From Amoebophrya sp. A120 (Eukaryota; Protista; Dinoflagellata): 64,000 bases of DNA. Under the pieces are notes generated by a model. That model was not told where the DNA came from and searched no databases. It worked only from the letters and a program-made list of their open reading frames with translations. The translations under genes and the position numbers were made by a program. The DNA lies in contig CAJINV010000005.1 in NCBI GenBank assembly GCA_905178155.1, positions 4,195,556-4,259,555 of the forward strand, written 5' to 3'. Positions 66-63,798 of this stretch are shown here, one piece after another. Position 1 is the first letter of the stretch. Every line of letters starts with the position of its first letter.

Positions 66-3000
66 TCAATCACGAGCAAATCTGCTGGTGTCCACCATGA
101 ACTGGGTGCGCTCGGCGCGCGTGGCAGGCAGGTACTTTCGCACGAGAACGCTGATGCCGAGGACCACGGATGAAGCGTAAAGAAACGCGAAGAGGCAGGT
201 GACGAAGTTGTTCTCGAAGACGAAAAGCGACGAAAAGAGCGCCACGCAGACCTGGCTCCACGAAAACGCTGACACGCACCGCAGCACGTCGTGTACCAGT
301 ATGGCGAACGTTCCTGCTGCAGTCAGTGGCGCACCACTTCCATCGCGATTAGCTGCCGAGTCGGAGGACGCACCACGTTGGTGCTGCTGAGGCCGATCCG
401 TTCTTTCCAGGCCCGCCCCAGCAGAAGACCTACAACTAGTACTTGCTGTAGAAGCTGCGCCGCTCAGGCCAAGGCCAAGGTGGACACCCGCATGATCCGA
501 AGAAGATGCCGCGCTGGCAGTTGGCGGCAGAGCGAGTTGGTGCAGGTTCGGCCGATCGTACTGAGAAAAGTAGGCTGCGCCGGCTGCTGCGTTCCCGACC
601 ACCGGCAGAGGGGGTTCTACTGAAGGGGCTAGGGGGCCATTGCCGCGGTCACCCTGTCCTGACGGTTGTGAAGCGCTGCTTTCGGCCTGCGTTGCCCATC
701 CAGTGGAAAATCCTCATCAGCTTGGAATTCTGCTGCTCGTCATGCAAACCATTTCACGTATAGTCACCACCATCGAGTCCTACTAGTTTGAAGATCAGGA
801 CTTTGTTCATCACGTGGTCGTCACGGGCACAAGTAAGTAAGTAAGTACGTATGCGATGGATCAGAAAAAGCCGGGCGCTGGTAAACAAAATTTCTCAGAA
901 CGAACCTTTTTTCGAGAATGATAAGGACCGAACAGACCTTTTAAAAAGGTCCGTTCGGTCCTTTATTTTTTCGAGGATGCGCGGACGCTGATAAGAAAAA
1001 CTTTGCAGAGGATATAATCCCCTCGTGTGTCCGTGTTCCGGTGTTCGTCCAAGACTCATGGTCCCGAATAAGACGATCCGCGAGATCGTCCTGGCCCCGC
1101 GGAGCTACCCCCGAGAAGGGCCCCCGGCCTTGAAAAAAGGACGCAGGCGCCGCTCCGCGCACGAGGGCACTGACAAAGCCCGCAACCGACTGCGTTGCGG
1201 CCGTCCACGACACGTTCCGTCTGGTAGCCTGGTTCCTGGTACTGGCACGAGACGCCCGGCTCGGCCCCCCTCCGCGACTGTTCATTCGCGAGTATTTACT
1301 GCTGGCATCGAAATCGATGTGCGGCAGGCAGACCTTCAAAAGGAAGGAATCGCATCACAGTGAAAAATCAAACCCCCTTGCCCCTGCCCTTTGCCTTTTC
1401 TCGTCATACGATCCAAAAATAACTTCCTAGGCCTGGTGCTCTGCCTCGCGGTCTCGTACGTCAGTGATTCATCAGCTCTAGTACTCGGCCTTGTACAAAA
1501 TGACAGAAGGAGAAGCGGCCCCTTGCCCTTGTCCTGGATGTACTACATGACTCTGGAAGAACATACCAAAGCCGCAACTCAGCTTCTTCGCTTAGGGCCG
1601 GAGCTGGTGCACAACACATGCCTACCAAAACAGCAATCTAAAAAAGTTTGTGCGTCGCTAACGCTATTAAATAATCCTATGGCATTTACGAAGCGGGTAG
1701 CGGGGTTCGGCGGGTTGCCTAATTTCTCACCCTGATAAGACGAAGGCAGAACAGAGCGTATAAAGCGCGGTAATCGCCACAAACACAAAGAAGGGGTAGC
1801 CTCTCATCTTCGGAAAAGAATACGCAAAGGGCTCCGTGCCTGCTCCAGCGACTGCGCGGTTCTGGTCTTGTTCCTCTTCCCCCGGCTGCAAGGGTGTGCC
1901 ACTTCTGTCGTCCTCCACCACCTCCGCACGATGGTACGTCTTTAGAGCAGGTTCTGCTTCCTCGCCACCATTCCTCGGGTCCTCATCCTCGTCCATCTTC
2001 TTGTGCGAAGTCGGGGAAGGCGTCACGGCGGAGACGGCAGCAGGGCTGGAAGTGGCAAAATGATCTGCGACGTGGTTGCGGAACAACGCCGAAGAGAAAG
2101 GATCTCCGACTGTAGGACTTCGTGTCGCATCGCGAGGACTCTTTGATGCAGAAGAAACGTTTGATATTGCCGCGTCCTGCACGTTGGTGTTTTTTAAATT
2201 CTGCATCTTCTTCACGCCCGCGTGACCACTCGTGTCCTTCTCATCTTCGAGATGCTGTGTTGCAACGGCCAGCGTTTCATTTTTGGACGAAAGTGCGGAA
2301 GCCCCAGACGTCGCGGAACTTGTCACGATATCACTGGAAAAGTTTTTTCGGCGGACCTCTGCAACTGCTGGTCTATCTCCAGAAGCCCCTCCTGCGACTC
2401 CACTTCTCGCGTCTCCTGATCGGACAGCTCCGGCTTGTGCAGACTCCGTCGACTGCGGTTGAGAAGCAGAAGCAATCAAAATGAAGAGTCCCCCATCACC
2501 AGGAGAGTAACTCTAACTGCAAACGTTCCGCATCGCATGAACTTTTTCTATCGTGTGAAGTCTTGCAGAGCTCAGCCAACAAGCATAAGCTTAGGCATTT
2601 TACGACCAATGCCTTAGGGCATACATGGTCTCGGGAAGAGTGGGTCAAGCTGCAGCTTGAGATCGGACCCGAACTTAGGACGCACCGGAGTGCAGCATGT
2701 ACTGGTGAATATTGCATGCAGGGAATGCAACGAATTTTGATTCGGATGTTGAGCCTGTTACGCAACTTCCACATGAACGACATCGCCTATACTGCGGCGC
2801 CGCGCATCATAGACCGGGGTGGGGGTACTTTTCGTTCCATGTGATAGAAGCCGGGGAAATCGTAGGTCCTTCACGCCCATCCTGGCCTGGTTCTTCTTCT
2901 TCCAACGCCCTGGCGTCGGCGGTTTCGACTGCTGTAAGGTATGCGTGCCCGTTTGTGTTCCCTCTTTTTCGGTCGTGCGTTGACGTTGCGACCGCCGTTT

Positions 3001-6000
3001 TTTCGACCGGCACAAGCGGCGCAGCGTCCTGCGAACCTGTTAGTGACGCGTGCCCTTCATCATTTTTGTACCCTTTTACTTGCCCCACAACCACACCACG
3101 GCCCGTGTCCGACGACTGAGGCATATGCTTCTCGGGGTCTGCTTCTGCGGTGCCCGTGCCAGGCACCAAAGTTGTTCTTTCCGACTCTTCTTTACCCGCC
3201 TCAGGAGCTGCGGACGCCGTGGGCCAGACTTTCTGATCCGCACTGTTCGGCGCCCCCGATTGGGGCTGGCGTCCATCTTGCGGCACGATGCCGATGGCAG
3301 GAGGAGTTTCTGGTTCGTCCCCCTGTCGTGGGGAAGATCCCTGTTGCACCGCTGCCGCCACGTTTCCGCCCTCACCGATTCCGCTCCTCGGTCCGGACGG
3401 CAATGTATTCGTGCCAGACAGTCTACCGCGTCCGTTGCCGTCGCCCGCAGAGAGCGACAGGTCATAGTGGCTCTCCGCGAGCCGCTTGGTGAAGAGGTGC
3501 AGGAGGCCGTAGGACGGATCTGAGAATGTCTATCAGCGGCGAATATGTCTGGGTCTGAAACAATGCAAGATCATCTGCCATGCATATACCTGCGGACCAC
3601 ACACACACACAGAGTCGGGAATGCACACAAAGACAAAAGCATCGCAAATTTTGCGCGAGCTTCCACATGCCTACTGCGCATGAGACGTCCGGCGCCTGTT
3701 GCCTAGCAAGAATTGCGCAACTCGAAGCGTTCATGCACCACAAACTTTTATATTTTTTTGTGATCGAGACTTAGCGTGACAAGTTGCAGTCTTGTTCTTC
3801 CAGACCCATACATATTTGCAATGCATAATGCCATGACCAGCACAATGATGGAGGTGTAGACCGAGAAACTGAGGTAGGACCTCCACAGTATCCTGCGTAA
3901 AGACGTCCGCACCCAAGAGTCAAGATGGGGATGTCGAAACACAAATCCAGAAGTTTTGGGAGTGACAAGTTCCGCTCTGCATTGTAGCGCAGTTTAGCAA
4001 AGCCAACCGCATGACAAAGCCTCTCATGAAGATGCGCATTACAAATGTTCCTGCAATTGGTATTGGAATTGCAAATCTGCATTGACAACTCTGGGGTGGA
4101 GATGCTTTTGCTCAGGATACAGAGGCGCACATACTTATTGCGAGAGCCCCTGCGGGTCGCGTTCCATCCGGTCACCAGGGACCGGGAATCCTCGTGGTGC
4201 TGTGCTCCGAAAGGAGGATCCACACCGTCGAGGTCGTTGTAGGCCGGCAAATCCGGTGGGGAGGACGACGCTGCGTGAGCAGACGATGCTGCGGCTTCAT
4301 ACCAAAACTCCTCCTGTAGGTCCGCGCGGCCCTGCTCCTCCACCTCCTTAATCCTGCGTAAAAACGTACCCACCCTGTGGAAAGCAAAGACGAGAAATCG
4401 GGTAGACAAATGATCCCAAAGCTTTTTAAGGACTCGCTAATGATAGAGAGGACTCGCTGTCGCTAATCATGAATTAGGCCTGCAATATATCAAGTTAAGC
4501 CATGGCCAGGGAAAAAATCAGCCGAATGGAGCAACGCAAAACCGGAAAATGCTCGTCGTGCTATTAACCGTCACACAAGATCTCCAAAAATCTCTATTTT
4601 TATTGCTGTCATCAGAGTAAGAAGCATTCCGAAACGCCAGTGGACGATCGAGATCCGCCTCACGGTGCTGCGCATGATAAGGAACATCCGGGAGGGCGCG
4701 GGGCATGCAAGTCAGCATGACAAAAAATTATGTCCCGGGGTGTTTACGTTTTCACGCAGGATACCCTGAAGCTCGTCTGATTCTCTTTCCATCATGTCCG
4801 CCGCAGCAAGGTCGTGTCCGACGAAATCATCATGTCGGACCCCAATCATACCTCGTGACTCGGGGGAAATGTCCGAGGAAAAAGTTGTAGCGGGCTTGGC
4901 GCTTACCCTGCTACCATGCGTCCCAGTGTCTAGTTCCCAAGGAGAAGTAGTGGTTGAGGCCGTGATCTCTGTATTGTGAGGGAAAATACCCCCTCCCCAT
5001 ATCGAAAACGAAGTTTGTGACGCTGTATAATTTGAGTACAACATCACAAAGCGACTTGTAATATTCCTAGAAGGCCAAGAGACGCAGTTGTGCCCTCGTT
5101 TGCAGGCAATTTGTCATCCTATTTCCCGGTTCCAGTTGCTTTTCCTGTCATGCTGAAGACGGAAGGCCTTTCCACGCCAGCCAGCACTAGTGTCGGCGTC
5201 CGCATCTTTTCCCTTCTAGCATGACAACGTGATTAATTTGTGGTGACAAATCATGCTACACGACAAATCTCCCTTTGAGTACTTATGGGAACAAGGGGGG
5301 ACTTTTCATTTCGATACTCTGGACGAGAAGACGAAAAAGTTGCGGCTCCTGGTGGCATATTGCGACGAAAAATCCCCCCTCCCCATTTCAAAACGAAATA
5401 TTATGATACTGATTCGTGGCCGCAAATCAGATTTGTCTATGCAGAAAGTGTGCTTGGCGGTATTTCTACTTTCTGGTATGCAAAAGGCTAGCAATTAGGC
5501 ATGGAAAACAGGTTTGCAGTAGTCGAAAGCGCATGATAACCGACTGGCTGTAGAATGCGCCACAGGGCTGCTATTACAACCCTATAGGCATCGACAAAGG
5601 TGATTTGCGACCACCACAAATTAGCATCACGACAAGGTTCCATTTTGATATGGGGGGGGATTTTTCACTTTGATATGGCAGGTGGTGTTGTCTGAGAAGG
5701 CTTTCGTGCGGTACGACTGGCTCAGGTCCAAACCGGATGTAAAACAAGATGCAGCCGAACAAGATGCCGACCACGTACCAAAACCGATGCTCCTCGACGA
5801 CAACCAACGCCAGCACGTATGGAAGTTAAGCGCACGCTCCCGCCGGGCAGAGAAAGGGTGTCTGCCTTTTCCTTTATGTCATATTGCATTTATGTACTTA
5901 TCGCAGGTTTATGTCATATACGTATTTAATTTTAAGTACACTTATCCTCGCACGACTCATATATAAATAACTACATTTGTGATGTCATGTCAGGAGTCCA

Positions 6001-9000
6001 AAGTAGAAGCTACAACATCGGCATGGTGTTATGGTTTGCCACTTCGGTATGATAGCGTTGCTAGCCTCTTCGGGCGAGCGTGACAAAAAGCCTGCACAGA
6101 AGGCCTCAACGGAGGGCTCCCGGTCTCGTCTGGGCTTCCAGCAAAACAACATACTGATCAAAAGAAACACTAGATGAATTTTTACAGCGACCACACATGA
6201 CCCATACGACTACGATCATCTTCACGTACATATGGATAAACTTAAACCTTGGGGCGGGGGCATACTTATTCTCAGCATAGCACGTTCGTGGAAAACAGGC
6301 TCCAGCAAAGGAACCCGACACCCCATCCAAATCCGTAGATTTATACGACGAAGACCGGACACATACAAAATCAATGTCTCACAAGTTTAAGCAGGTGTCT
6401 TTCAGAAAGGTGACAGTTGTCACGCTTCAATGGAAGCAGATGTGTGTCTTTTCATGCAGTCTCGAAGCTTGTGGCTGTGTTTTGATGTGTGCAGTGCATG
6501 ATTTATCGTGGATAAGATAAAGAGAAATTGTACAAACGGAAGCCAGTGACTCCACCCGCCCAGCAGCGAATTTGTTGGGTGCCCTACACTGCCTCCGGCG
6601 GAGCTGAAGCTGACACTGAACAGGTTCATGCGACTATCCCGTGCAAAAATGGCGCCGTGTTTCGCAGCACAAGTCCATGAGAATGGGGTGAGCGTGAGTG
6701 TAAAACGCTTGTCCCTGGTGCATGCCGAGCTTGTTCCTTACGGTTACGGCTTGAATCGTGTCAGGAAATAAAAAATCGAAGCACAACAACAAAAGCAACA
6801 ACCACAAACCTGCAAAAGTACAACTTCCACAGCATTTTGTATTCTACCTCGTGCGTACTATTTGGACATTGAAATGGAAATAGCAGACGCATTTCATTCT
6901 TCCTGCTCCAAGTAGATACATAAAAAATTTGAGTGTCGACTTTGACAGACGCTTTCACACAGGGTAATAGCTACTGCTGGAACTAGCTCCCAGGTACCGC
7001 TGCTGCCGCCTGAGCATGCGAAAGTTTGTCCATGCATATCGAAAGAAAACTACCGCCCCACCAGCCCTGACCTGAGTGGCTTTGCAGAACAGATGCTCTG
7101 CACATGATCAAAAATCAAAAAAAAAATACTATTTCAATTTTATTTTACTTAGTGTCAGTCGTGATGAGGCTGCAATTGCAAATGAAAGAGGTCCCTTGCA
7201 GTCACATTTCTGCCTGATTTTACCACTACTGCTGCGGGTCCCCTTCAGGGCAGTGTCATCGTCTTGTGGTGGGTCATTTTCCTGAGGTGTCTCGTTTTCG
7301 TGGCAAGGGCCACGACCCTAGTACACATCTAGATGGAAGGCGGGTTCTTTTCTTTTCTTACTGCACAAGCAGTGGTCAGTAACGCGATGAAGAACAGGCC
7401 GGAGACAAGTTTTCCAAAGCTCCCACAGCACAGCAGGCCCAGCTTCTCCAACAGAAGTTGCCAGACCTCGAGGAACAAGCTTTATTGTGAGGAAAGCTCC
7501 CCCTCCCGATATTGATGAACGCGCATCCTTCTGAAAATTTGCCATGCAGATTTGTGGCCACAGAGTGTTTCTGTCTTGCAAGAAGGCAAATGCCGAGGAA
7601 TGCGCCACATTATGGAGGCGCTTTGTCATGCTGACTGGCCTGCAGGGCAGGGGTTTCCCATGCTAAACAGCCATACCCTTACGCTCCCTAAGAACAGGCC
7701 AAGAACCTGCCTACAGTCCCCCACTGCAAGACTCATTTGTGTACGCAAATCCAGCATCAGAAACTGCGTCTTGATATGCTGGGGAGGGAGAGTCTTTGCT
7801 TCTGATAAGCTCGCCTTGCTGACCACCAGCCCGATCGGCAGCCACTCCAGCGCCCCGATCAGAATTGGCCACGACAGCATGCGAAACAGTCGGCCAGGCA
7901 GAGTCGAAAAAAACTCCGGAACGCACCGCCGGTGACGGTCGCGCCAGTGTCATCCTGAGCATAAAAACCTACACCACATCCCATCGTCAAGAAGATGCCG
8001 GCTTTGATGCTACACGACAAGTCATGATCACAAACTTTATTTATCAGGCACCTAGTTCTGTAGAACGAGTCGTGGTTAGCTAGTGCAGCCGCATCTTGTT
8101 CTGAGCTACTTTGGTTCTTATCCTGATTCGATAGTGAGAGCATACCGAATTTCCACACAGCATGATTAGACATTGAACGCTTCTCAAGGGGTTCTTGCGC
8201 ATGGTACGACACGACATCCGATTCTGTTTCATTTCTGGCAGCTCTGGGCATGCAGATTTACATCACAAAGATGGAGTGGGTATGTTGTTTTTACACAAAA
8301 TAATAAGTGCCTCTCCTCGGTGGACGCCGGCAAAGCGGTCGTGTAGTCGACCTCCTCCTCCTGGTAGGCCTATGCATTGTAATTTCTATGTCTGGATGTG
8401 CAAGATGGCAAGCAAACCTGGGAATGGGCTGCTGATTGTTGAGTGAAAAAATCGGTCCTGCATACAAAACAACTCAGCAAAACTGCATGCGCGCTCTTTG
8501 TCTCTGGAAGAGGGCGCTTCTCGGTCTCGCGCAGGCCAGGAATGAAAAAACAAAAAGCCTCCGCAGAATTTGCTAAGTTTAATAAAGTAGTTCCTGCGCA
8601 CTGCGTTGATTCTCGCGGGTCCAACAATTGCACAAGAACGCATACCTGCTTTCTTCCAGATCCTGCTCACCAGACCACATATTTGCAATGGATAAGGCGG
8701 CAGTATTGTAGACCACAAAGACTAGAGAGTCGTGGTAGTACCAGACAAACAATCCTGCGGCCGTGATGGCAAACACCAACTCCGCAACTCCGGCAATCGC
8801 GCACTGCTCGATCCGGTCTTTTTTCGAGCTATCAAATGTAAAAATGTCTGGGTCTGGAAGATCGCGAGATTTGTCATGCATATTTCGGATCACGCGAATG
8901 GCGTCTGATGCAGGCAAAAGCATCACAGGTTTTGAACGCGCCTCATGATGCCTGTCCCGCATGAGAAACTTCCTACTTGCGTGCCAAGAAATGGACAGCT

Positions 9001-9270
9001 TTTGGCGCTCATGCAACACAAATTTTTGTGTGTTCCAGAGTTTGCATCACAAGTTGCAACCCTTCCAGACCCAGACACTTTTACATTTGATACGAGCAGT
9101 GCCCGAACCAAACGCCGACGGCGTGCGGGCTCTGCGAACTGAAGACGATAAACAAAATATCCAAGAACAGCCGAAAGGAAGTTGCCACGATCACCGTGCT
9201 ACTCATGCGTAGATAGCTGCGCAAGGTCAGCAGATATCCGCGCGGCACAAGTTTCAGAAGTTGCTGCATC
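66..9270 (-). CDS. Multi-exon polytopic membrane protein of unknown family (ends and two junctions unresolved)
   Basis: Exons join in frame after removing 12 introners plus one 5-bp repeat each, e.g. ...VWFGHCS|KKDRIEQ...YNTAA|YQEEE...EERH|WRDR...KASL|FLEVWQLL...; STNV|LALVVVEEHRFWYVVGILF...HHLP|PGAAT...RPE|ITAS...KYVRL|WRSYLSF...VMA|FSDPSY...SPAS|ASQPQ...AFV|SFLLKVCL. Many hydrophobic segments. Junctions at ~715-1012 and ~6341-7330 are not cleanly resolved. Confidence 0.6.
1353..1737. mobile_element. Introner (degenerate TIR (C/T)ATCA..GTGA.AAAT)
   Basis: Flanks aatcg/agacg; removing element+5 nt joins AFV|SFLLKVCL in frame. Confidence 0.6.
2474..2846. mobile_element. Introner family C-like
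   Basis: Perfect 5-bp TSD gaagc; frame restored. Confidence 0.8.
3531..3827. mobile_element. Introner family A
   Basis: TIR core atgtctgggtctg; TSD atgtc/atgcc; frame restored. Confidence 0.85.
3889..4119. mobile_element. Introner family B
   Basis: TIR tatcctg...caggata; TSD cacag/cagag; frame restored. Confidence 0.85.
4350..4763. mobile_element. Introner family B
   Basis: TIR atcctgcgt.aaaacgt; TSD tcctt/ccctg; frame restored. Confidence 0.75.
4972..5316. mobile_element. Introner family C
   Basis: Perfect TSD ctctg; frame restored. Confidence 0.85.
5358..5675. mobile_element. Introner family C
   Basis: Perfect TSD tggca; frame restored. Confidence 0.9.
5818..6279. mobile_element. Introner (degenerate, B-like)
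   Basis: tatg...cata ends; perfect TSD gcacg; frame restored. Confidence 0.7.
7483..7807. mobile_element. Introner family C
   Basis: TSD agctt/agctc; frame restored. Confidence 0.8.
7951..8305. mobile_element. Introner family B
   Basis: TSD agtgt/agtgc; frame restored. Confidence 0.75.
8371..8694. mobile_element. Introner family A variant
   Basis: TIR tat(g/c)cattg.aa; TSD aggcc/aggcg; frame restored. Confidence 0.8.
8830..9092. mobile_element. Introner family A (near-perfect ~31-bp TIR tatcaaatgtaaaaatgtctgggtctggaag)
   Basis: Perfect TSD cgagc; frame restored. Confidence 0.95.
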
Positions 9271-15200: not shown

Positions 15201-15636
15201 CACCACCTAAAAGTTTTTCTTCTTCGTGCTACGTATCCACATGATTGGCATCACAAATTAATATCAACAAAAAACATCAACATCAAACAATATGAATTAC
15301 ATGCGAGGTTGAGCAGCTGCACGAAGAGGGCTATCCTTCAGGAAAAAGCTAGCATAGCATTGTTGATTTTTGTGTAGTAGTTCTTTGAAAAGCTACAACT
15401 GCGCAAAAATCCGCCTTGCGTGACATGGGGAGCACAGCTTCTCTCGGCCACACTTTTCACGTATCATTTCTCGTGTCTTTTTTTTCCAGTCTATGCATTC
15501 GTTGGAGCTTGGTCGTTGCGTTGCTGCAACCATCTATGCTAGTCATTTCCTGTAGGATAGAGGCTCTGGGTCTCTTGAGGAGTATGGCGAACTCACTCAT
15601 ATACCCGCCAACTGCTTCGGTCAAATAGGCCAACAT
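12271..15636 (-). CDS. SEC11: Signal peptidase complex catalytic subunit SEC11 (peptidase S26B), 8 exons
   Basis: Reconstructed MLAYLTEAVGGYMSEFAILLKRPRA(L/F)[47 protein letters not shown]...IPIVHRIVNAHKNRKTEEYAILTKGDNNQVDDRGLYMSKQNFISRKEVMGRAFGFLPYVGMITILLNDYPWLKYIMIGSMGFFVMIGRESKGWL*. Catalytic SGSMEP, IVHR and TKGDNN-x-DD motifs are present. Two GT-AG introns (14485-14807, 15018-15300) and five introner introns. Confidence 0.95.
12362..13005. mobile_element. Introner family A with internal insertion
   Basis: Perfect TSD tcagc; removal gives SEC11 LL|NDYP. Confidence 0.95.
13107..13778. mobile_element. Introner family A with internal insertion
   Basis: TSD gacca/gaccc; removal gives SEC11 DDRG|LY. 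Confidence 0.95.
13822..14103. mobile_element. Introner family B
   Basis: Perfect TSD aaaat; removal gives SEC11 AIL|TKGDNN. Confidence 0.95.
14131..14457. mobile_element. Introner family E
   Basis: TIR (c/t)atc.ca.gaaaaaactct; TSD tccag/tccgg; SEC11 frame restored. Confidence 0.85.
15332..15559. mobile_element. Introner family E
   Basis: TIR tatcct.caggaaa...ctagca; TSD agggc/gaggc; SEC11 frame restored. Confidence 0.85.
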
Positions 15637-20681: not shown

Positions 20682-21078
20682 CACTCGCCGAAGCGAGGAT
20701 CCAGACATCGACATGTGTCAAACTCCGCTACGGAGAGACCATCCAGGACAGACCCACTCGCCGAAGCGAGGAGCCAGACATGAGTCATCCTCCACTGCGG
20801 AGAGACCAGACAGGAAATCCTCACTCGCCGAAGCGAGGAACCAGACATGATCATCCTCCACTGCGGAGAGACCAGACCGGACAAACTCACTCGCCGAAGC
20901 GAGGAACCAGACATGAGTCATCCTCCACTGCGGAGAGACCAGACAGGACAAACTCACTCGCCGAAGCGAGGAGCCATACAGGGGCGATCCTCCACCACGG
21001 AGAGACCACACAGGACACTCACTCGCCGAAGCGAGGAACAGACAGGCGTCATCCTCCACTGCGGAGAGACCAGACAGG
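20682..21078. repeat. Tandem array, ~66-bp unit x6
   Basis: cactcgccgaagcgagg starts at 20682, 20755, 20822, 20888, 20955 and 21020. Confidence 0.95.
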
Positions 21079-49874: not shown

Positions 49875-52800
49875 CTACGCCTTTTTGTACGGAAAGTCTT
49901 TGTGCCAGTAGATAGCATCACCAGTAACAAAGTCTTCATCCCGTGACCTAGAACCGCCCATCCCGGCGCCAGGATCTGGTAGGGAATAGCTCTTATCCTC
50001 CGTGAAAATGTCCACAAAACGCATCACCAAGAGGATTTGCCTGGGGTGCCGGTGCAATCGCTGCATAAGCTTTGCCTCCGAACGTCCACGTTCAACGCGA
50101 CTAGTGGAAGCCTGATGTAGCTGCGAGGAGCGCCGCATAAAAAAAAAGCGTGTACTTAGACGCCAACCACGAGGCGACTCAGATTAAGGGCGCATGACAA
50201 AATTAATACAACTCTTGCTCTTCGTGTTCATCGTCCCAAGCATAGACCGTTGCGGAGAACAACAGTCTAGGTAAAAAAATCTACTTAACGATACTGTCTT
50301 TTCCGTTGTACATCAGACTGTTATCATTCACATGCCTGCACCAAAAACTCCCCCAGTTCTCATCTAGCGTTTTTTCTGGAGATTCTCTAGTAGAGAACAT
50401 TTTCTCGTGGATAGCGCCAGCGCAAAAAGTGGTGGTCAACCTTTTGGACACACTCGAGCTCCACTTCTTGGCCTAGCACGAACACGGCGCATCTGGAAGG
50501 CCTGCCAATGGGCTCGTGCAGGTTCAGGAAGTGGCTGCCATTTTTGGACACGATTCCTCGAGTACTACGGAAAATTTTGCCACTGGTGACCAGATCCCGC
50601 CGGATCGCTTCGTGCACGTCTTCCGCTGCAATGCTTCGCAAGACTTCCCGCCCGGCACAGAAAAGCCGTTCCAACCGCCGCAACACAAACAGGAACTGGT
50701 CCAGCGTCAATCTCTGCAGGCCGTCGTCTGCGTGGTCGTGCTTTTGCTGTTTGCCCCTCGTCGTAGTTGTACCGCTAGTTGTAGGACCGGAGAAGAGCCT
50801 GCTGTCCTGCTCCCGTTGCGACGTTGCGTCCATTTTCTTCGCCAGACGCTTCGCACCATCCAAAGTTGCGCAGCTCCAACTACAGTCTCCCTTGCTGTTT
50901 CGTGCTTCCTCTTGGTCTCGCTCTCCGTAGTTCTCCGCAGAGGGCGGGCCCTGTTTGCTACTCTGTCTCCTCGACTCGTCCTTCAAAAGAGAAGGCCAGA
51001 CTTGGACTTCTCGCCGAGGGGAGTGGCCGGCGTCCGCGACCTCCAAAAGAGCAGCAGCCTGAACACCAGCGTCGCTCTCGACATCATCCTCTTCTGATGT
51101 CAGCATATCGCTGCTCCTAGAAGATGAACAGCAGCTCGAAGCGTCTTCGGCGTCCGGGGTAGAGGAACCAACCACTTCTTTCCCCTTCTCCTTTTCGCGC
51201 AGCAGCCTGTTGCGCTCGAAATCGTAGAACCCGTCGAACACATGTCTTATCCGCGCCTTGACGCGTTGCATTTGTTGGACTGTCAGCGAACCATCAGCAA
51301 GATTTACAGGCTCCAACTCCATCAGCATGGAGTTTTCATCGCTAGTTCCGCTTCCATCCCCTCCAGCCCCGGATGCTAGGCCCTGTTCTGCTTCTGGCTG
51401 ACCACGTACTGCTGGGCGGTGGGATTCGGTCGCTGTGCTCGCAAGACTTGCGTGCAGCCCGCGTACGAAGAAAAAGCAGGCCTGCGCGACCTTATCCAGG
51501 AAAAAAAGTGTGTAAGTGTAACTTTCTTTGAGAAACAGCATCACAAATTTGCTCTACATGACAGAGAAAACCTGTCATGCGTGACTTGTAAGGGAAAACA
51601 CACATGAAAAAAGGACTTCATGGCTATCTGGCATGACAGGTGTAACCCTTTTGCATGTTCTGCAACACAAATTTACACTTACACAGTTTTTTTCTTGCAT
51701 AGACCTCCAATTCGGTGTATTCCGAGTAAAAACATCCCCACCCCAGACTTGTCACGCAAATCTGCATGCCAAAAATATTTCTCATGCGGAGCCCCATGCG
51801 AAGCATTTCTCCGTCGTGTTTTGGAGTTTGTGTTGCAGCTCAAATCAGCACGATATGCTAGATCTGTGATGCTGCTGGAGCTAGCTAAACAGGATTACAC
51901 TACGGGGCCAAATTTGTCATGCGAAACAACAGAAGCTGGTTGATTTGTCTAGCAGATTTCCCATCTTGACCCTGGTGTGGGGATGTTTTTACATAGGATA
52001 CGGTGACCTCATTGCTCTGTTCCTTCAAGCGACACCGGAGCCGTTCGGCAAAGTTTCGGATGTAGTCGCTCAGGCCTTCCATGGTTCGCCAAGCTGGTGC
52101 TGGTGGCACAGGCACTGGCACACTTCTTACAAACTCCTGGAAAGATTTATTATACGTGAATCAGCAGCCGCGGTCCCTTGCCCTTCGACGGAAGTAAGTT
52201 GTCCATATACTTATGTTCCATAGTAATGTTAATGTTCGAAGGAGGAGGTGGTCGTGGTATATAATAGCATCGAGCTCACAGCCAGTACGTGGCGAGTCAT
52301 GCTGTCTTCTTCATCCACCGACCTGCTGAGCGTGGCCGCTTATCCATTCCTATCGCGAACTAGACCAACATCCCTTACTTTTCACATGGGTATTTAGGGT
52401 CGCATTGAATCTTGTTCCTGCGAAGTCGGTAAATCAACGGCTCTTTATTTAGGATTTACCTGCCGGCACAACACGAACACGGCACTTATGAAAAAATATT
52501 CATCGCATCACTTTCCTCTCCACAGCGTTTCGTACTCGTTTGTTTCGATTCGGAACGCCTTTCGTTTCGATTGCCATGCCAACAGGAGCCAGGTTTTCCT
52601 TTTTTATTTTTGCCATTGCCAGCGATCGTCAAAATAAAGTTTTGTCGCCAACTATCTCCAACAGTAGAATTAGAATTGTGATCCCGGTACTTGATCTTGT
52701 CAAGATCAGGGTAGTGCAGTCGCGATCAGGCAGAATTTTACTTTTGGTCTCGGTGTCGCAGCTACCGCTACGAATCAATCCCGTAGAAATAGCATCTTCA

Positions 52801-55408
52801 ACTAATCGTTGTAATAAATGCTCTTGACTCGTCTTTTTCGCGCACTTTGACCTAAAAGCATGGAATCGAGCCAGTGTGTCGTATTGCAACGTGTTGAGGG
52901 TGGTACTTATCAGTGTGTGCACTGTGACGAATGGCACGTCGCCCTTCATGATCATGATAGATTATGACGTTGACGACCATGTTTCGCTGCATGATAATGA
53001 AACATCCTCGTGGTTGTACCACCAGGCCTGTGATCATCTACCAGCGCCCATACATGTTCGGCCGGGAACGCCCAAAGGCCGGCCTCGTTCGGTGTTTTAG
53101 GTCTGCACGGATCGCCTTTTTGCACTGCTCCCGACCGATCCGCGGGAAGTAGCCATGCTGTGTGGGCACCAGCTCTGGCGCCTTCAGGTGGCAATTCATA
53201 AGAGGAGTTTTGCCATCACTCGCAAGTTTGATTCGCGGTTGTACTAGACGATCTTGATCGACGTCCCCAGCAGGTCGTCCTCCGCAACTACCAGTCTGGC
53301 TTGTCATGCTACGCGCAAAGAGCTCGCTGTTGTCCCATCGATTGTGGACGCCGCCTCGCTGGTCCCAGTCCAGCTTGTTGGGCAGTACCCACTGCTTCCA
53401 CCGGACGTTCCGTCGCATTTCCTTTCGGTAAAAGGCCTGATCCGACTCCCCAAAGTGTTCGGTGATCCCGGCCTCCGCGTCTATTTTTCCGCGGCTTTTT
53501 CCAGCAGCCCAGAGCGCCCCGCCGATTTTTTCCGGCGAGTTCGTGCGCGGCGTTTCGTCCTGCTTAGACGTTGAGGTTGGGGGCGAGAAGACGTCAAAAG
53601 CCGCATCCTCGCGGGCCGATTCGGTCCCCGAATGCGCTCCCGTAGACCCAACGCTCGATGCGCCCGACGAAGCAGAAGAAGATGCACATGCAGTTGCACT
53701 ATATAGCTCCCTCAGCTGCTACATTCTCAACAGTCGCAAACTGCTATTGCAACAGTGGGCAACTGTTACGAATAAACCCCGCAGACTTTATTTTACGATG
53801 CAAAAAGTATAGAAAGTGCATTATGTTGGTGACCACCGGTGCATTATGTACAGGTAGGGAGTTTTCTTTTTTTCAGAACAGACCGCCCCACTGCCCTCCC
53901 GATCTCGGATCTTTGGAAATGAACTCTTGCCGACTAAGCGAGAAGATGGTAAGCGAGGTCCCAGCGTCCCCCCTTTCCCTGGAGGGCAGAAACGAGGGTG
54001 GCCCTGTAAAACTAAAAAGTGAGCTGGCCTCCTATATACAAATAACGCGCATGTTGACCGGTTCAGGAAACCCTGAGTCTCACTAGACAAACCTCCAAGC
54101 AAAATTTGTACATTCATTTGCTGAACATGCTAATTAATGCAAGACGAAATCCAAGCTCGTCTTCTGTCACAGCAACAGTTGAGATTGTAACACCTGCGCA
54201 GATGATAAACAAGGCAAAGCAGTAAGTAAATTGTACAGGACGAAGACGTCGCATACGCGAGGGCACCCCGTGCGCATTGCGTAGTCTGCTGCCGTTCTGT
54301 TTTCCGCGTCCCGCGCACGGCCGTTCGCTCCCTTTTGCAAGAGGAGGCGGCAGGTGCCGTAGGACTTCTGCTGCGCCGCCAACATGAGCGGCGTTCTCCC
54401 CGAACGTGTATGGGATTGTTCCCAAGCGTTGCATTCTCAGTTGTTGCATGATTTGTCGTCCAAAATTCTCTACTTACATCATCAAGCTGCTTCGCGTGCA
54501 AAGTTCTCGACGCGGACACGCACACGCTAGATAGCATGCATTAGAATCTGCGCCAAAGAACCTGTAACGCAAAAAGCGCAATCCTCCCCCTTTGCCTTTC
54601 ACTTTTGCCATTCTTGCAGTACATGTAACAGTTGAGAAAGTAACGTTTGAGAACCCCATAACGTGAATCTTTCCTGTCGAGTATCTGTTTCAGCACCTTT
54701 TTGTTGCCGAGCGTCCGTAGCAACTCATCTACTGCGGGATAATCCGCACTGGCGCACGCGTCACGAAGAGATTTTGCAAAATGTTCTATTGCAGCAAACT
54801 GGACCTTCTCGTTGTGTTGTCGACCACCCGCAACGACTTCACCACCGGGCGGAAGAGTAGATCCTGCAGCATGCCGTTCCTGCAGCGAAAGGTTTGTGTC
54901 CGCCTTCTGCGGTCGTAGACTTCGGGACGGAGCTCGTCCTCCCGTTCTTTCCTCCAAAACGGTAGTGCCCCAAGTGCGAGTATGCGTGCAGTCATGGCGG
55001 AGCGTGCTGGAGCTTCCTTGCGACGAAAAAAGATCGACCAAGAGCTCCTCCCTTACTGCCGCGCTCCGCGGCCCCCCAGAAGGCTTACAGCGCTCCGCCG
55101 ACATTTCCTCCAAAACACGGGGACTCCCTGTGTTCGGAACACCAGTTAGGGGCTGCCGGCATGCGAGGCTCTTGCTTCGAAGTGACGCCTATCCACTGCA
55201 AGCATGTCTGGGTCTGGAAAGACGGAGTTGCTTTGTGCTGCTGAGCTTCGCATGCCAAAGTGGACTCGCTCCTGTAGTTGTACACCATGAAGAGAGCATT
55301 GTCTTTCACTTTCAAATATTGGACGACCAAGCCATACCTAGACATATTTGCGATGCATAATGCCGTTGTGGTCGCAGTCTGCGCCAAATCTTGTACGAAT
55401 TGCTGCAT
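49875..55408 (-). CDS. Ankyrin-repeat-containing protein, multi-exon (both ends and middle junctions uncertain)
   Basis: DSR|SGRTPLMLAAQQKSYGTCRLLLQKGANGRARDAENRTAADYA is an ankyrin repeat, formed only after removing introner 54409-54660. Further in-frame joins: TTTA|SLRSK, EVT|ELEV|AQACFF, RWR|SSQLH. The downstream exons could belong to a separate gene. Confidence 0.65.
50135..50413. mobile_element. Introner (E-like, left TIR decayed)
   Basis: Perfect TSD gcgcc; frame restored. Confidence 0.6.
51493..51701. mobile_element. Introner family E
   Basis: TIR tat.ca.gaaaaaaa.tgtgtaagtgtaa; perfect TSD gacct. Confidence 0.9.
51718..52000. mobile_element. Introner family B
   Basis: Perfect TSD cggtg; frame restored. 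Confidence 0.9.
54409..54660. mobile_element. Introner family F (tatggg...cccata)
   Basis: Perfect TSD acgtg; ankyrin repeat restored. Confidence 0.85.
55190..55359. mobile_element. Introner family A (short)
   Basis: TSD acgcc/atgcc; frame restored. Confidence 0.85.
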
Positions 55409-57230: not shown

Positions 57231-60200
57231 TCAGAGAAAATAAGGGGAGTGCGCCATGTATGCATTGCAAAAGCATCGCACTAGTATAAATGACATGACA
57301 AATTTCCTTAACATGAGAAACGAGATTTGTAATGCGGATTTGCCTTGATAACAAGATTTGTAATGCATGAATGCGATTAGTACGAGTACGATACTTTTGC
57401 ACAGGATACCATGGAGGCGATGGACAGATGCCGTCCGCCTACAGAGCTCGAAGGCGGATCAAATGCAAAAATGTCTGGGTCTGGAAGGATGCAACTTGTG
57501 ATGCTGAATTCGGATTCTACAAAAATCTGTATTGCGTGAACAGCAAAAGAGGTCCAGTTTTTGCCACGGCGAGAGGGCATTTCTAATGCGGTGTAGGCAT
57601 CAGGAAGCCCCCACAAAATGTGTGATGCTAGCGCGTGCGTCACAGAATTCAGGAGTCATGCAAAGTGTGCATGACAAACCTCGCTAGCATCCTTCCAGAC
57701 CCAGACATTCTTGCATTTGATAAGGCGGATCGTGGAACGACGAGTAGAACGGGTTTGGCGAGCTGCCCAGGTAAAACAAATCCTGCTCCTGTCGCATCGC
57801 TGCGGCCCACTCGTCCGCGCGCGCCAACTGCAGCCACCCGAGGTGGTGGCTTTCGTCGTTGAAAGACGAAGGCTTGCAGTGTTCAACGTGCGCTGCCCGG
57901 TCCGCCCACGCTTTCTCCAGTCGGGGTAACGCAAACTGGCTCTTGAGCTGCTCCATCACAAACAGCGGCGCCGGGACAGTTTGCGCGGCTCCAGCGGTAC
58001 TCGTGTAGTTACAGTGGATCATGCCAATAGTTGTAACACTATTACTCCCGGCCGCAGGGGCGCTTTGCTGCGACAAGGCCGTGCTTTGCTGAGAGGAGCT
58101 GCCCCCGGCGACCGGCGCACAAACAAGGGGTCCGGCGGAGGCGGCGGCTTGCACCGGTGCTGCCGACTCTGGGACGGACGAAAGCAGTGAAGCTAGAGTG
58201 TTGGTGCTGGCCGTGCCCGTTCCGGCCCCCACCGTGGTCCCCGCCCGTGTTTGGTGGTCTCCGGCGGCAGTACCGATCGAAGGAGTAGGAGTCCCGGCGA
58301 CGGGGTTCCCGCACTGTGTCGCGGCTGCACAAGTTGTGAGCGGGGCCCTGCTCGTAAAACTTGAAGACTGCTGCGGTCCTGCGGAAGTGTTGACTACCAC
58401 TCTCTGCGACGACGTGTGCGAAGGCTCCGCACGATGAAAGAGGTATCTTAGAAAAAAGCACACCCATTCCCATATCGGAAAAAAAGAACAACTCAAAGTG
58501 CATTTACAAATTGCTTTCTACACTTGCTTTCTTATGGTCTCCGCGTTACAACTGAGCTGCTTTCTTCACTGGCGATTATCTATATCTTCATCTCCTGGCA
58601 TCACAAACATAAATTCCTGTGGTGCTAGTAGGGGCGTTGTACAGCTTCTCTGTAGGATAACTGGGGAGCCGGGAACTTTCGAAACTGACCGTACCAAACT
58701 CGTGGATCTCGGGATTTCTGTATCAACTCGCGGGCCTCCTCCATACGTCGCTGTAAGGCCAGGGCAGCTTGGGTGGTATTCGCTGATGCGGGGGGTCCAC
58801 CTCCTGCCGCGGAAACGGCCCTGCTCGTCGTGCAGCTGTTGAGTGGTCCACCAGACGCGGCTGCACGGCTCGGCAAAAAGCTACAACCTGCAGGGCCTCC
58901 ACCTCCCGTCGCTGCGTCACTTGCTCCTGGTGCCTGCGACGTTGCCGCGGCCGTTGATGTCAGCATGGGAACAACGACAGTGCCGTGTTTATAATTCCTG
59001 GGCTTCTTACCCTTTTTCTTCTTTTTTGCCGATGAAAACTCTTGGGGCACACCAGTGGTGCGCGGATTGGACGCCGTGATCCGAACCTGCATGGCCGAAA
59101 CGTCCGACGAGGGGCGGCGGAAGTAGGGACGGTCCCCTTCTTGCTCATGCTCCAACACGTCACTGTCCAAGGCCCAATTGCAGGGCGCAAGCCGCTTCCG
59201 CTGACGCGGCCCGATGCTGCTCTCGTTCATCGCGACCACACCCGTCGTAGAGGCTGCATCCATCTCGTGGTTGAAAAGAGGAACCACACCGTTGTTCTCA
59301 TCTACTACAACTTTCGTCGCGGAAGTAGTTGTACCACTGCGAGAAGGGGGCGAGGAGCCTCCTCGCTCCGTAGCTGCACAGGATATGGGGTCGTCAACGT
59401 TGTATTTGCCTCAAGCTGTAAAAAATTTTCCGCGCGCCTTTTTTTGTATTTGATATCCATCATGTTGCACGCATATAGCCTCTCGCTACATTGCATACCG
59501 AATGAACTAGCTAGCTTCTTCGCAGCACTTCTCGGTGGCTAAAGTCGGAGCTATCCGGCGCTGCTGCTCCACGGACTTGCCTCGGAGCGCCCCTGCAGCC
59601 TGGAGGTGCTGCAGCAGGTCCTCCTGCAGTCCAGCCGCTAGACAATGGGCCTCAATCTGTGCAGGTCGGTCGGGGCCAAGGGCGCAAACGCAACCGGCCG
59701 CGGCTGCGTTTCCGCTTGTTTCTAATGTCGCGCAGCCGTGCGCGCTTTTTCCGGCAGGCGCGCGCGCCTTTTGCCTTTGCGGCTCGTTCTTGAAAATGCG
59801 AAAAGCCCGAGAGCCTTTCGGAAAGGCTTCCCGGAGGGGTTCCGGGACCCCTTTTGGGGAGGGGTAGCACCATCGTGATTCGAAGAAAAAGCGATAGCCT
59901 TTTTTTTAGGGTTCCGGGCACCCCTCCGGCCCTCCCTCTTTGGGGGGCCTCCGGAAAGGCCTTCGCGGCCAACATATGCGTGTGGTGCCCGCTAGAGACG
60001 ACGACGCCAAGGCCTGTGTAGACATCTCGTGGGGCGTCTGCAGCCTCACACCCTAACCCAGGCCATAGCGGCAAATGGCTGCACGGAGAAAGCAATCCGG
60101 AAAATGGAGCAAAATATTGCGCGCGCCCGGCGCTTTCTAAGTGAAAACGCCAGCCACAAAAGAACCCTCTGTGCCCCGCCCTCCTCCGCGTCAATACTCA

Positions 60201-63200
60201 CTTACCTACTAGAGCACTGCTGCTGACAAGCTAGCTAAAACAAACCGCGCTCGAGTCAGCCCCTCACTTGCGGGCACAGGTTTACTAGCTTCCCGCCGCG
60301 AAAAAATGCGCGCAGAAATTTTTTTACGGTCTGAGGCAAATACAAGTTTGACGCCCCCATACAGGAGCCTCCTCGCTCCGTAGCTGCACTATCCTGCCCT
60401 GTGGCCGCAAAACTCGTAGCAGCGGCATAATTCTCGGATGGGAGGAGCAGGCCTCGGGAAAGGTCAAGCGCAGCTGCGTCCTCCGCCAGTTCCGGCACTG
60501 GATGTCTATCTTCTCGACGATTCCCTACCTTCTCGACGTGCACCTGCGCGGGAGTGCAGAAGTCAACGAGGTTACGTTCTTCCGGCTCCACCGAGGTGGA
60601 TCCAAGAACTCCAATCCGCACCGCGCCAGCTTCCTCACTAGAAGGCCGCGCCGAACACTGCTTGCTGCTGGACTTACTACTCGGCACACTGCTCATTTCC
60701 GAGGACCAACCATAATTGGTAGAGGAGCCCCCCAGAGGACGTAAGCTGTTTTTAAGTTTTATTTGCTGTTGGAGTATTATTTGGTGTTATTTGTTTTTTA
60801 TCGCTCACCATTTGTCGCATGATCATGATATCACTGCAGGACCTGTAATGAAATTGCTGTAAAGGCTCGGTGATGTGTAATGGCGAGGATTTCTCGGTGA
60901 TGTCATATCTCGTCTCAACATGGCGAGGATCATGGTCCATCAACTTCGATTTTAGGCGGGTTCCAGGCTGGCGGGGCCGGCGGGTGAAATGTATGCTACG
61001 AAATTGGGCGGCGGGCAAGGAAACGCCGCAGAGTCGCGGCCGCGGCCATCAATGCAACGCGCAACCGGGGGGGGGGCGCATCACCAGCGCGCCGGCCCAC
61101 GTGCTCTTTCGCTCCGCCCGGCGCTGCGGCCGCAGAAAAAGAGCGCGGGGCAGGGGCGGGGCGGGGCGCCCACCATCCGGGCCCGCAGCGACAGGACGCT
61201 GCGGTGCCAGAGCTGCTGCTGGGGTGTGTGGCTCTTGGCGTTTTACTTTATTGCAGCCCACAGGGACGTTGGCACAGGATTATCGCGCCCGTATTGGCGC
61301 ACTGGATCCGCCAAGCCGGGCGCCTTGCGGCCTGTGTTTCTCGGAAAAGGAACCGCGCGAGCCGGCGCCGCCCTCCCGATGGCAGGGAAATAGGGGCGGG
61401 CGGGCGGTGGCCCTGCGGTGTGGCTCGCGTCGCTGCGCGATCAAGGCCCGCCGCCTGCGTCGCTTAAAGTGGCCTGCCACTTGTCCGCGTCGGGTGGCTT
61501 GTCGGGCCTTGTGGCGGATGGCCCCTGCTCGTAAATCAGGTGGCCCCCGCTGGTCTTTCACTCGGCGAAGGCCTGAAACCTACCTAGAATCGGGCCTGCC
61601 TCGCGGTCTCGGGCATCTACAAGAGGACTCGAAATCTTGGGTGGTGGTGCCGTTTTTTCAGCTGCGGGTGGCCAGCGTTTGGGCGCGCCATTTCTTGCGG
61701 TTCTCGACGCGGCCGAAAACGCATTTTTCGAGGCGCGTTTTTAAAATGCTTTTTTCGTTTTTGAGTACGTTTTTTCGAAAAACGAAAATGCGCGTTTTGT
61801 ATTTTGTTAGGGCATACCATGGCGAGGATCATGGTCCATCAACTTCGATTTGCAATTTCCATGCATCCTCAAAGCTAGCCACTATTCCAAAAACGCTCGC
61901 ACTCACGAGGTACTATTTTCCCCCGCGTGCCCAGCACGTCCACGCAATGTTGCAACCACAGACCTTTTCGGAAAAGAAACTCTCCGAGCTTCTATGGGTA
62001 TGTTGGCCCTGTGGCTGTGGATTCTGTTTGATCGCACATGCTGATACTAATAAATATACCCCCTTTTCTGGCACACACAGCTGGTAGGAAGTGTGGAAAG
62101 AGCGCATGCCTCAGCAGGATCGCCGTCTCTATGAGTTAGAGAAAATTCTATATCTTTCAGTGATTGTCATACCTTTCCGTAATTTTTAAAAGCCTTACCC
62201 AATGTCCTCGGATGCGCACGAAGTCGGGACAGTGGCTGCCGTGTGCGGTGGTATCTCTGCCGCAAGATTGATCGTTGTCCGTTGCGCCTGCGGTCGATCC
62301 ACGAAATGCATACGGCTGCGGCCATGTCCTCAGGAAAAACATCCCCTCCACCCCCGAGTCGAAATGGGAACCCTGCAGCACAAATTTACGGGATTTGAGA
62401 GTAACGCGCGACAACTTTGCCCTTGTATTCTAGTGCAGGTTAGCTTTAGCAAGGAGAAGGACAGCCGCATGATCACACACAATATTCTTAGATATTCTTA
62501 TTCTGTTTACAGCACTACAAATGGAAACGCCAAGCCACGATTGCAAACGCCTCTCCTGGGGATGCGCATTCCTGTAGTTGCAAAGAAACCTGCGTGACAA
62601 CTTCGGGGTGTAGTTTATGTGCTGGAATAGACCAAAATAAAGCACAGAGAAACTTAAACTTTCAGGAAAGGGAGGTGGGGCCGTGTTTGCTCAGGGTAGG
62701 CCAAACGGGCGAGTCCTGTTCTTGAAGACCATCGCGTGTGTGGGTTGTGTGTCGTCGCGTACATTTTCTCGTAGTGGTGCAGTTTGCTGGGCACGAGACC
62801 CGGTATTTCCGGGCGCCGCGGTGGCGCCGAAGAATGTCACGCTGCTAGGTTGTTCTTCCTGGTGCTGCAGCTGCTGCAGTTGCACCGGAAGAAAAAGCTT
62901 GTTTTCGCAGTGGGGATCCCGTCCTCGTTCCGGCGTCTTCGAAAAGAACATCCGTTCCACCGCGGTAGAGACGATAGTGGTCGTTGTCGCGACAGGAGCA
63001 CCTCCGCCCGGCGGCGCAGGAGGGGCCCCTGCTGAAATAAGAACCGGAGGATGAAGATCCCCCGGTAGACAAGCTACACTTGGATCCGGGGTGGACTCTG
63101 CTTGCTCTGGTCCATTCCCAGTCGCCAGACCCCGAACATTACCTTCGGTTGTACTTAAATTCGCTGCGGACATTGCATTAGTACCTCCGGCGGGCGGAAC

Positions 63201-63798
63201 CGGAAGCGGACCGCAGCCAACTGCATTACCTCCGGTGCCACTGGATGCAGTGCCGGCACCTTTGTTCAGCAGCAAGGCACCTGCGGCTGTCCGAAAAGTG
63301 GTCTGTGCGTGTCCGCCTCCGCCTGCGAGCTTTAGGGCCGATCGCATACTGCAGTGAAGAGTGCCCCCAACCCGGAACTTGCAAAAGTTAAAGTTTGTTA
63401 TTGTGCCGCAAGGTTTCCAAATAAAAAAATCCAAAACTGTTTGTCTTGCTAATCCGACCGCTGCCATAAAATTTTTGTCGTCTACTTGCGTGACAGGATG
63501 AAATCGATTGATTACCGATGAGTTGTTTTTTTGATGCAGAGTCTAGGCGAGTGCTGAGGCACTTTTTACATAACAGAAGGGCAGACTGTTATATATTGGG
63601 CCCTTTTGCAACGATCTTTCGCTGTGTGCGATCGTCATACACGCAGCATGGCGCGCCCAGTAGGAAGTTTTGCAATGCAAATCAATGCCGCCAGCAAGTT
63701 TTTGATGGGTGGGGGCACTTTTCAATGTGATATCGATGCCCGAACAGCGAGCGTGGCGACCCGGGGCGCGCGGCCAGCGCGCGGGTGCGCTGCAGCCG
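57231..63798 (-). CDS. Low-complexity Ser/Ala/Gly/Thr/Pro-rich protein, 5' end beyond the window
   Basis: In-frame joins FGHR|SALKL, PFG|RSRMH, EDIG (GT-AG intron 60746-62198) LRPLG, GGSC|AATERGGSSPPSR, APQ|FHRAE, HDPP|SSSVG, SM|AHSPYFL*. Confidence 0.7.
57259..57408. mobile_element. Short (150-bp) introner
   Basis: TIR tat...tgcaaaag.atcg.act; perfect TSD ccatg. Confidence 0.85.
57457..57722. mobile_element. Introner family A
   Basis: Perfect TSD aggcg; frame restored. Confidence 0.9.
58444..58659. mobile_element. Introner (E-like, degenerate)
   Basis: tatc...gata ends; TSD agagg/actgg; frame restored. Confidence 0.65.
59384..60361. mobile_element. Long (978-bp) introner family F with ~60-bp TIR
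   Basis: tatggggtcgtcaacgttgtatttgcctca... is inverted at 60300-60361; perfect TSD cagga; frame restored. Confidence 0.9.
62325..62698. mobile_element. Introner family B
   Basis: Perfect TSD ggcca; frame restored. Confidence 0.85.
63347..63732. mobile_element. Introner family C-like
   Basis: TIR ...tgaa.agtgccccca; TSD tcgca/tcgat; frame restored. Confidence 0.75.

Follow-up and report, generated by a model that had tools for sequence, protein, structure and literature searches.

Transposon-like introns of Amoebophrya sp. A120 are cut in a single register inside their target-site duplication

Genes in a 64,000-nucleotide stretch of the Amoebophrya sp. A120 genome (contig CAJINV010000005.1, positions 4,195,556 to 4,259,555 of the forward strand; hereafter the window) are interrupted by introner elements, which are bounded by terminal inverted repeats (TIRs) and flanked by a 5-bp target-site duplication (TSD). 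We found that, wherever the cut can be placed, it falls 1 nt outside the element on the 5′ side and 4 nt outside it on the 3′ side; the intron thus reads N + TAT…ATA + NNNN, and it is cut inside the duplication. A previous study of A120 (Farhat et al., 2021; PMC7789003) described introners with TAT-starting inverted repeats, direct repeats of 3–5 nt (5 bp in the legend of Fig. S19), RNA-seq support, and a likeness to miniature inverted-repeat transposable elements (MITEs), and reported that they coexist with GT-AG introns. The window elements are these introners and are not themselves new; since they had already been described, the question is how they are cut. The same study reported no clear splice signature and border positions that were variable or unknown, and more than 60% of the introns in these genomes have been published as lacking a splice signature, their removal route being unknown.

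Our curated list comprises 41 TAT…ATA elements of 150–1409 bp, whose two TSD copies agree at 5/5 positions in 19 elements, 4/5 in 12, 3/5 in 8, and 2/5 in 2. Their inverted repeats start with TAT, followed by seven variable bases and a run of A (position table), as in the published A120 introners, and the direct repeats at the exon/intron borders, here and in the second assembly described below, likewise agree with the published 3–5 nt. In a search blind to the termini, TIR pairs starting with TAT showed a strong excess of 5-bp repeats, perfect in 13 of 31, and a search that scored TIR and TSD together returned 32 pairs at a score of at least 45 in the window versus 1, 0, and 1 in three shuffles. 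All host genes modelled in the window, and all features listed here, are on the minus strand. By our own reading, 39 of the 41 elements lie inside open frames, the exceptions being 15656, in the 5′ untranslated region (UTR) of SEC11, and 41246, probably in a UTR or N-terminal; in the translated models, deleting the element plus 5 nt leaves an open frame across the joint. The first-pass annotation of this DNA had claimed about 40 TAT…ATA elements with 5-bp TSDs, the same size range, 19 perfect repeats, and 39 coding cases whose frame is restored by this deletion, an observation that holds here; the curated list also includes 697–1014, beyond the span of that annotation, so that one or two elements may be particular to either list. 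The elements are repeated in families (clusters of 169, 50, 42, 28, and 26 at 70% identity), and their summed sequencing depth exceeds 1e5 versus about 45 in unique DNA. A family TIR gave no matches in viral contigs. Two exons of the window, one of SEC11 and one of a JmjC gene, are 100% identical to the NCBI-named Amoebophrya sp. A120 proteins P0001 and P0121, respectively.

Removal of the elements was read from contigs of four runs (X1–X4, marked ‘RNA?’; two samples, one study), which we treated as RNA because the same contigs have both GT-AG introns of SEC11 removed. This evidence covers the window up to position 17000; beyond it, we used reading frames, Pfam domains, and one annotated protein. 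Among the joints listed, the element plus 5 nt is skipped exactly at all 14 readable element joints, and the listed exon pieces contain no letter that differs from the window. One RNA table, with 15 of its 26 joints listed, gives 12 element joints, 2 GT-AG introns, and a joint (9916>11322) that we set aside for its 28 foreign letters. In each of the four runs, a single contig joins all exons of SEC11 (coding region 12274–15636, 193 amino acids), which is interrupted by five introners and two GT-AG introns. Four of these introners, each with an RNA joint in all four runs, are at 12362–13005 (TSD 5/5), 13107–13778 (4/5), 13822–14103 (5/5), and 14131–14457 (4/5, 3′ end ATG), and the fifth is the element at 15332–15559; a further one, at 15656–16036 (5/5), lies in the 5′ UTR and is also joined in four runs. 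The GT-AG introns, at 14485–14807 (donor GTAC) and 15018–15300 (donor GTAA), are supported by RNA joints and the gene model, and both types of intron are spliced in the same RNA contigs. At lower window coordinates, RNA joints remove the elements at 1353–1737 (TSD 3/5; joint 1347>1738), 2474–2846 (5/5, 3′ end ATT; 2467>2846), 3531–3827 (4/5), 3889–4119 (4/5), 4350–4763 (3/5; 4345>4765, run X3 only), 4972–5316 (5/5), 5358–5675 (5/5), and 5818–6279 (5/5, weak TIR; 5811>6279). Removal does without GT-AG ends: sliding the joint reaches GC-AG at 15656 alone, and AT-AC or GT-AC at 3531 and 5818.

The DNA evidence complements these joints. Run X6, whose kind is unrecorded and which we read as DNA from its even depth of 42–53, provides contigs at single-copy depth (42–46) that pass unbroken through elements at 1000–3827 and 14074–17000. 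These contigs, the loss of GT-AG introns from the same RNA contigs, exon pieces without a single other letter, and the coexistence of low-depth unspliced contigs in the RNA runs argue against excision at the DNA level in some life stage and against expression of intronless copies. Only one DNA-type run was used, with 15 of 591 joints listed, and rare precise excision would escape it; even so, we regard either possibility as extremely improbable. Taken together, these results bear out the earlier claims that non-autonomous TIR elements are removed from RNA and that ordinary GT-AG introns coexist with them.

Two observations concern incomplete removal. The element at 5818–6279, which has the weakest TIR, is partly retained: a fully unspliced X3 contig (5789–6308) has a depth of 8 versus 40 for the spliced form, and this single element is possibly spliced more slowly. 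In run X9, 130 raw RNA reads fall on the window, nearly all of them at one element end but derived from another locus, and SEC11 exons are uncovered; 122 of them carry an end about 90–95% similar to 13710–13778 joined to the sequence of the other locus, in whose well-expressed transcript this element end is retained.

To express the register, we count as k the bases of the upstream TSD copy that are excised as part of the intron. At k=1, the 5 nt lost besides the element comprise one base of the upstream copy, its last, and bases 1–4 of the downstream copy. Imperfect TSDs limit the possible values to 0–1 at element 1353, to 1–4 at 4350, and to 1 at 15332, and k=1 is the sole value that fits all 14 RNA joints. 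The joint at 15332 (15327>15561) removes exactly 15328–15560, allows no slide, and was found in four runs from both samples. Gene models of SEC11 and of the JmjC/cupin-8 gene (43221–48994, 916 amino acids, PF13621, five introners) built at k=0 to 5 match P0001 and P0121 with no differences only at k=1; other values alter F26 in SEC11 and, in the JmjC protein, K780 at the element 45052–45464 (TSD 2/5; gene model versus P0121), which provides a second pin for the register. F26 is F in five of six homologues, A25 included, and this evidence is independent of the RNA of this strain. In the mRNA, the upstream copy contributes four bases and the downstream copy its last one, which restores the original insertion site. 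In Table S4 of PMC7789003, nine of the nine top A120 motifs begin with NT, as k=1 predicts, although some could be aligner or strand effects; nine of the nine top A25 motifs begin with TT. The A25 repeats start with TTA (PMC7789003), so that an intron starting at the repeat would likewise have U at +2, followed by A at +3.

The first-pass annotation had described the excised unit as the element plus one TSD copy, which is right in length (element plus 5 nt) and wrong in position, since, with a whole copy removed, residue 26 of SEC11 would be S or L in place of F, and residue 780 of the JmjC protein would be R or E in place of K. One could still suppose that a whole copy is removed in no fixed internal register and that the chimeric 5-mers in the products come from RNA editing or strain differences. 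Possible editing has been noted near 2–4% of intron borders (PMC7789003), and TSD position 5 differs between the copies at three sites only. However, all three (4350, 15332, and 45052) carry the base of the downstream copy in the product, which would require three different substitutions, and at SEC11 only that base yields the conserved F; we therefore consider this explanation very improbable. The rule and our reading of it appear to be new, the phenomenon itself being known: in the literature cited here and in PMC11453091 and PMC9860276, we found no statement of a fixed register, of an N-U-A-Y donor, or of a lariat test for these introns, and figures of PMC7789003 may show an example of this border.

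A second assembly was also analysed, in which one TIR pattern matched 147 stretches; 141 loci (L001–L141) were covered (823 kb including overlaps). Its elements are 75–97% identical to those window elements that have a match, an RPB1 exon shows 86% identity to its best database match, and RPB1 is likewise interrupted in frame by elements. Among 431 elements mined with no reference to the TSD, a perfect 5-bp TSD is present in 329, a 4-bp TSD in 3, and a 6-bp TSD in none. The miner handles both ends equally; of 463 mined elements, a codon model could orient 358, and the other 105 were left out. Similar copies occur in both orientations (245 versus 231 pairs). The two ends vary differently. U at intron position +2 is invariant (358/358 in the second assembly and 41/41 in the window), whereas its mirror base, A−5, is changed in 13 of the 358 (p=0.00024) and in six window elements, that is, 0 versus 19 with the window included. 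The second TIR base is symmetric (4 changes versus 4). The third varies in 17 of the 358 at the 5′ end, 14 times to C, versus 4 at the 3′ end (A−7; p=0.007); TAC is the commonest 5′ variant (14/21), and 16 TAC cases are spread over 16 different clusters. The stem-breaking change U+4>C (16) is commoner than the stem-keeping A−7>G (4; p=0.012). Strand-specific mutation bias was rejected as the cause of this asymmetry, as the control (A>G, 28 versus 22) is too weak and has the opposite sign for +4. A non-coding control of only 47 elements, a small sample, had position 1 changed in 2 of 94 ends and position 3 in none.

Base usage at positions +1, −2, and −1 matches the background, and AG ends occur in 24/358 introns of the second assembly and 4/41 of the window versus 7.3% in flanks, in agreement with the earlier claim that no AG acceptor is required. 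A GT or GC donor together with an AG acceptor, as in a U2-type intron, is present in 0/41 introns of the window and 8/358 of the second assembly, and elements with mismatched TSDs showed no drift towards G at +1 or a terminal AG. Positions +5 to +8 differ by family, equally at both ends. This last pattern bears on the possibility that the introners have a hidden spliceosome of their own, of the minor (U12-like) type or another. Many introner 5′ ends read N-UAUCC(U), resembling the U12 donor consensus, RUAUCCUU; the resemblance is family-dependent and alike at both ends, however. Physarum offers a precedent in its TIR-bearing U12 introns, but neither A25 nor A120 yielded U11, U12, U4atac, or U6atac (PMC7789003), and we find such a route very improbable.

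The introner 5′ end also resembles that of ordinary host introns. Among predicted GT-AG introns (150 of 267 parsed), the donors GTAT (34) and GTAC (23) lead, and five of eight RPB1 donors, read by eye from homology gaps, are GTAT. The introner 5′ end thus equals the host GUAY donor minus G+1, the tolerated C at +4 included, and its core at +2 to +4 (N-UAY) agrees with that of the host introns (G-UAY), as for a U2-type intron. In loci L001–L141, the predicted GT-AG introns have an (A)CAG acceptor after a G-poor, A/C-rich tract without a polypyrimidine tract, and their donors lack G at +5. The published A120 spliceosome is nearly complete, with U1 small nuclear RNA not detected (PMC7789003); U1 is reported to be retained in a strain having GT-AG introns (PMC12005148). 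Rfam gave no matches in the window at gathering thresholds, and hence no group I or group II ribozyme core.

Given the GUAY-like 5′ end, the excess of U+4>C over A−7>G, and the ends predicted to be unpaired, described below, an adapted U2-type spliceosome likely removes the elements, reading TAT as +2 to +4 of an N-U-A-Y donor without G+1 or AG. In such a mechanism, the inverted-repeat termini would present U-A-U at +2 to +4 and A-U-A at −7 to −5 in either orientation, the TIR stem would bridge the intron ends and replace U1/U2AF-type definition, A−7 would serve for branching, and the 3′ cut would be set at a fixed distance from it. A−7 is a candidate branch point, a role we consider almost as probable as not. 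More tentatively, we propose that A120-type parasites have a U1-less spliceosome freed of the need for G+1 and AG, which would use a ruler consisting of an N|UAY donor, a branch A at −7, and a 3′ cut six bases on, and that A25 might do likewise with TTA ends and another register. Under this ruler, the palindromic TAT…ATA ends would give both signals either way and the 5-bp TSD would give the 1+4 spacer, so that any insertion would become a scarless intron.

Alternatively, a protein endonuclease might read the TIR stem and cut at offsets of 1 nt on its 5′ side and 4 nt on its 3′ side; the exons would then be joined by a ligase without a spliceosome. Such a stem-guided route has been proposed for euglenids and diplonemids (PMC12621601, PMC11282704), and euglenid introns likewise have an offset stem and are released as circles. 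The fixed offset from the stem with free terminal bases, the use of both orientations, and the wobble compatibility of most −5 changes fit this route, as do predicted folds, in which the three terminal pairs have a mean pairing probability of 0.51–0.62 and many elements form strong end duplexes. In contrast, 5 of the 14 RNA-verified introns have a predicted pairing probability of ≤0.1 at the three terminal bases. Moreover, pure stem recognition predicts that A−7>G, which leaves a wobble, should exceed U+4>C, which leaves a mismatch, and the observed 4 versus 16 argue against pure pairing. The match to the host GUAY donor would be left as a coincidence, although a nuclease with sequence preference could still fit. 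We consider the nuclease and ligase unlikely, if a serious contender, and the structure-guided splicing route of the first-pass annotation, taken as purely structural, was not supported, because the ends carry strand-specific constraints, one of them opposing pairing, and part of the verified introns are predicted to be unpaired terminally.

Several points weigh against the adapted spliceosome and the evidence beneath it. Spliceosomes normally need G+1 and G−1, and both are free here. C or T occupies −8 in about 29% of the elements, and G occupies −9 in many, which fits YURAY poorly; a fixed A at −7 was not seen in predicted GT-AG introns (18/45, like adjacent positions), and the parser behind these introns is noisy, requiring only GT and AG. 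In most predicted folds, A−7 is paired rather than bulged, and a long TIR stem would have to be unwound to expose the donor and the putative branch A. G is the new base in 12 of the 19 changes at −5, a wobble that the stem tolerates. Orientation in the second assembly is itself predicted, by a codon model that was right for 27 of 28 window elements and with which 283 of 297 neighbours agreed. As to the register, the exact value k=1 is pinned by two sites only, and the annotated proteins may share the same RNA data as the contigs. A lariat, a branch point, and inhibitor sensitivity are, for these introners, predictions from sequence.

The class of transposon behind the elements was also considered. 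The first-pass annotation had suggested an affinity to IS3EU; the TA..TA termini (TAY..RTA) and TIRs are shared with IS3EU/GingerRoot (PMC10045372, PMC12730594), but the TSD is 5 bp (329 perfect) and not the usual 6 bp of that group (0/431), and no transposase was found, so the affinity is not supported. No transposase domain was detected in 48 open reading frames within long elements or in 98 long ones of the loci, a small, TIR-selected sample. From the TIR plus TSD alone, we infer mobilisation by an integrase-like DDE transposase encoded elsewhere in the genome and cutting with a 5-bp stagger. In 19 of the 58 A120 rows of a recent survey (Gozashti, 2025; PMC12130899), most families are TIR DNA elements with unassigned superfamily, TSD lengths range from 2 to 5 with inconsistent splice-site calls, and one family carries Copia/Gypsy-like open reading frames.

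The remaining elements of the window are as follows. Near the start, 697–1014 (TSD 2/5, 3′ end ATG) ends where an RNA piece begins (1015) and lies in an open frame; 7483–7807 (4/5) is supported by an RNA piece ending at 7476 and the frame, 8371–8694 (4/5) by the scored search and frame, and 8830–9092 (5/5), of the most abundant family, by an RNA piece beginning at 9093 and the frame. Three calls on single elements were rejected: 7037–7360, 45052–46189, and 6635–6966, the last having no TSD and being spanned by an unspliced X3 contig. Strong TIR-like ends that lack a partner or a matching TSD occur at 6635–6966, 7037, and 63799; RNA covers 6601–6997 in unspliced form, and 63799 is the start of an element truncated by the window edge. 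An element at 32062–32375 (4/5) was placed by the position table and frame. In a two-pore K+ channel gene, one element interrupts the second pore domain (37093–37342, 5/5; frame and Pfam). It is followed by a long element without an internal Pfam domain (38308–39630, 5/5; frame and Pfam), 39704–40157 (4/5; frame), 40209–40661 (5′ end TAC, 4/5) and 40678–41002 (4/5), both from the position table and frame, and 41246–41508 (5/5; terminus-blind search and frame models), noted above.

Besides 45052–45464, the JmjC gene contains the longest element (43545–44953, 5/5; gene model and Pfam), which has no internal Pfam domain, and three elements placed by the gene model versus P0121: 45741–46189 (3′ end AGA, 3/5), 46807–47125 in the JmjC core (4/5), and 47864–48271 (3′ end ACA, 3/5). 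The elements 12362–13005 and 43545–44953, long members of the abundant family, appear by eye to share a related internal passenger sequence without coding signal. Frame evidence places 49994–50413 (3/5), 51493–51701 (5/5), 51718–52000 (5/5), 54409–54660 (5/5), 55190–55359 (4/5), the shortest element 57259–57408 (5/5), 57457–57722 (3′ end ATC, 5/5), and 58444–58659 (3/5); the long 59384–60361 (5/5) rests on frame and Pfam, 62325–62698 (5′ end TAC, 3′ end ACA, 5/5) on the position table and frame, and 63347–63732 (3′ end GTA, 3/5) on the scored search and frame. Around 59384–60361, besides the 5-bp TSD, an exonic duplication of about 27 bp (59352–59383 and 60362–60388) is in frame. A 1213-codon open frame on the minus strand (27744–31385) is element-free and has no Pfam match above the cut-off, and the regions 17000–27700 and 32400–36300 are GC-rich, repetitive, and almost free of introners, with tandem duplications and palindromes. 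In the second assembly, one introner is nested within an RPB1 GT-AG intron (L048, 11517–11756), and a C-5 cytosine DNA methyltransferase lies in two frames (L012, 2635–6090), probably split by a GT-AG intron.

With a single register, introns described as lacking any splice signature acquire a concrete code, N-U-A-Y … A-U-A-NNNN. The register corrects the annotation of junctions, as a sliding intron alters the encoded residues, and makes the question of removal directly testable by looking for a lariat at −7 or a circle. If removal is spliceosomal, A120 would have a natural spliceosome indifferent to both terminal guanosines, which would account for the tolerance of tens of thousands of insertions, those in SEC11 and RPB1 included.

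Compared with known systems, the window elements share the TAT start, the repeats, and the RNA support with the A120 and A25 introners of PMC7789003, and differ in the single register and strand-specific signals derived here. The introns of Fritillaria borealis (PMC13326754) are alike in having TIRs and TSDs, a MITE origin, and removal by a U2-type spliceosome, and they indicate that a spliceosome can adapt to ends other than GT-AG; they differ in their preferred ends, AG-AC and AG-AT, and conserved U1, whereas the introners studied here show background base usage at +1 and −2/−1, and no U1 was detected in A120. In euglenid plastids, group III introns resemble the introners in a 5′-NUNNG start, a bulged A, and four free 3′ bases in the printed consensus; they differ in being plastid, U-rich, and group II-derived with a domain VI hairpin, and no relationship is implied. 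Finally, the introns of euglenids and diplonemids (PMC12621601, PMC11282704) are alike in an offset stem that joins the ends, in TSD-like repeats, and in the lack of GT-AG, but have CAG/CTG at +4 to +6 and −8 to −6, pyrimidine|purine junctions, and circular products; introns of the window and the second assembly do not show these motifs and junctions, and have instead a 1/4-nt offset and U at +2.

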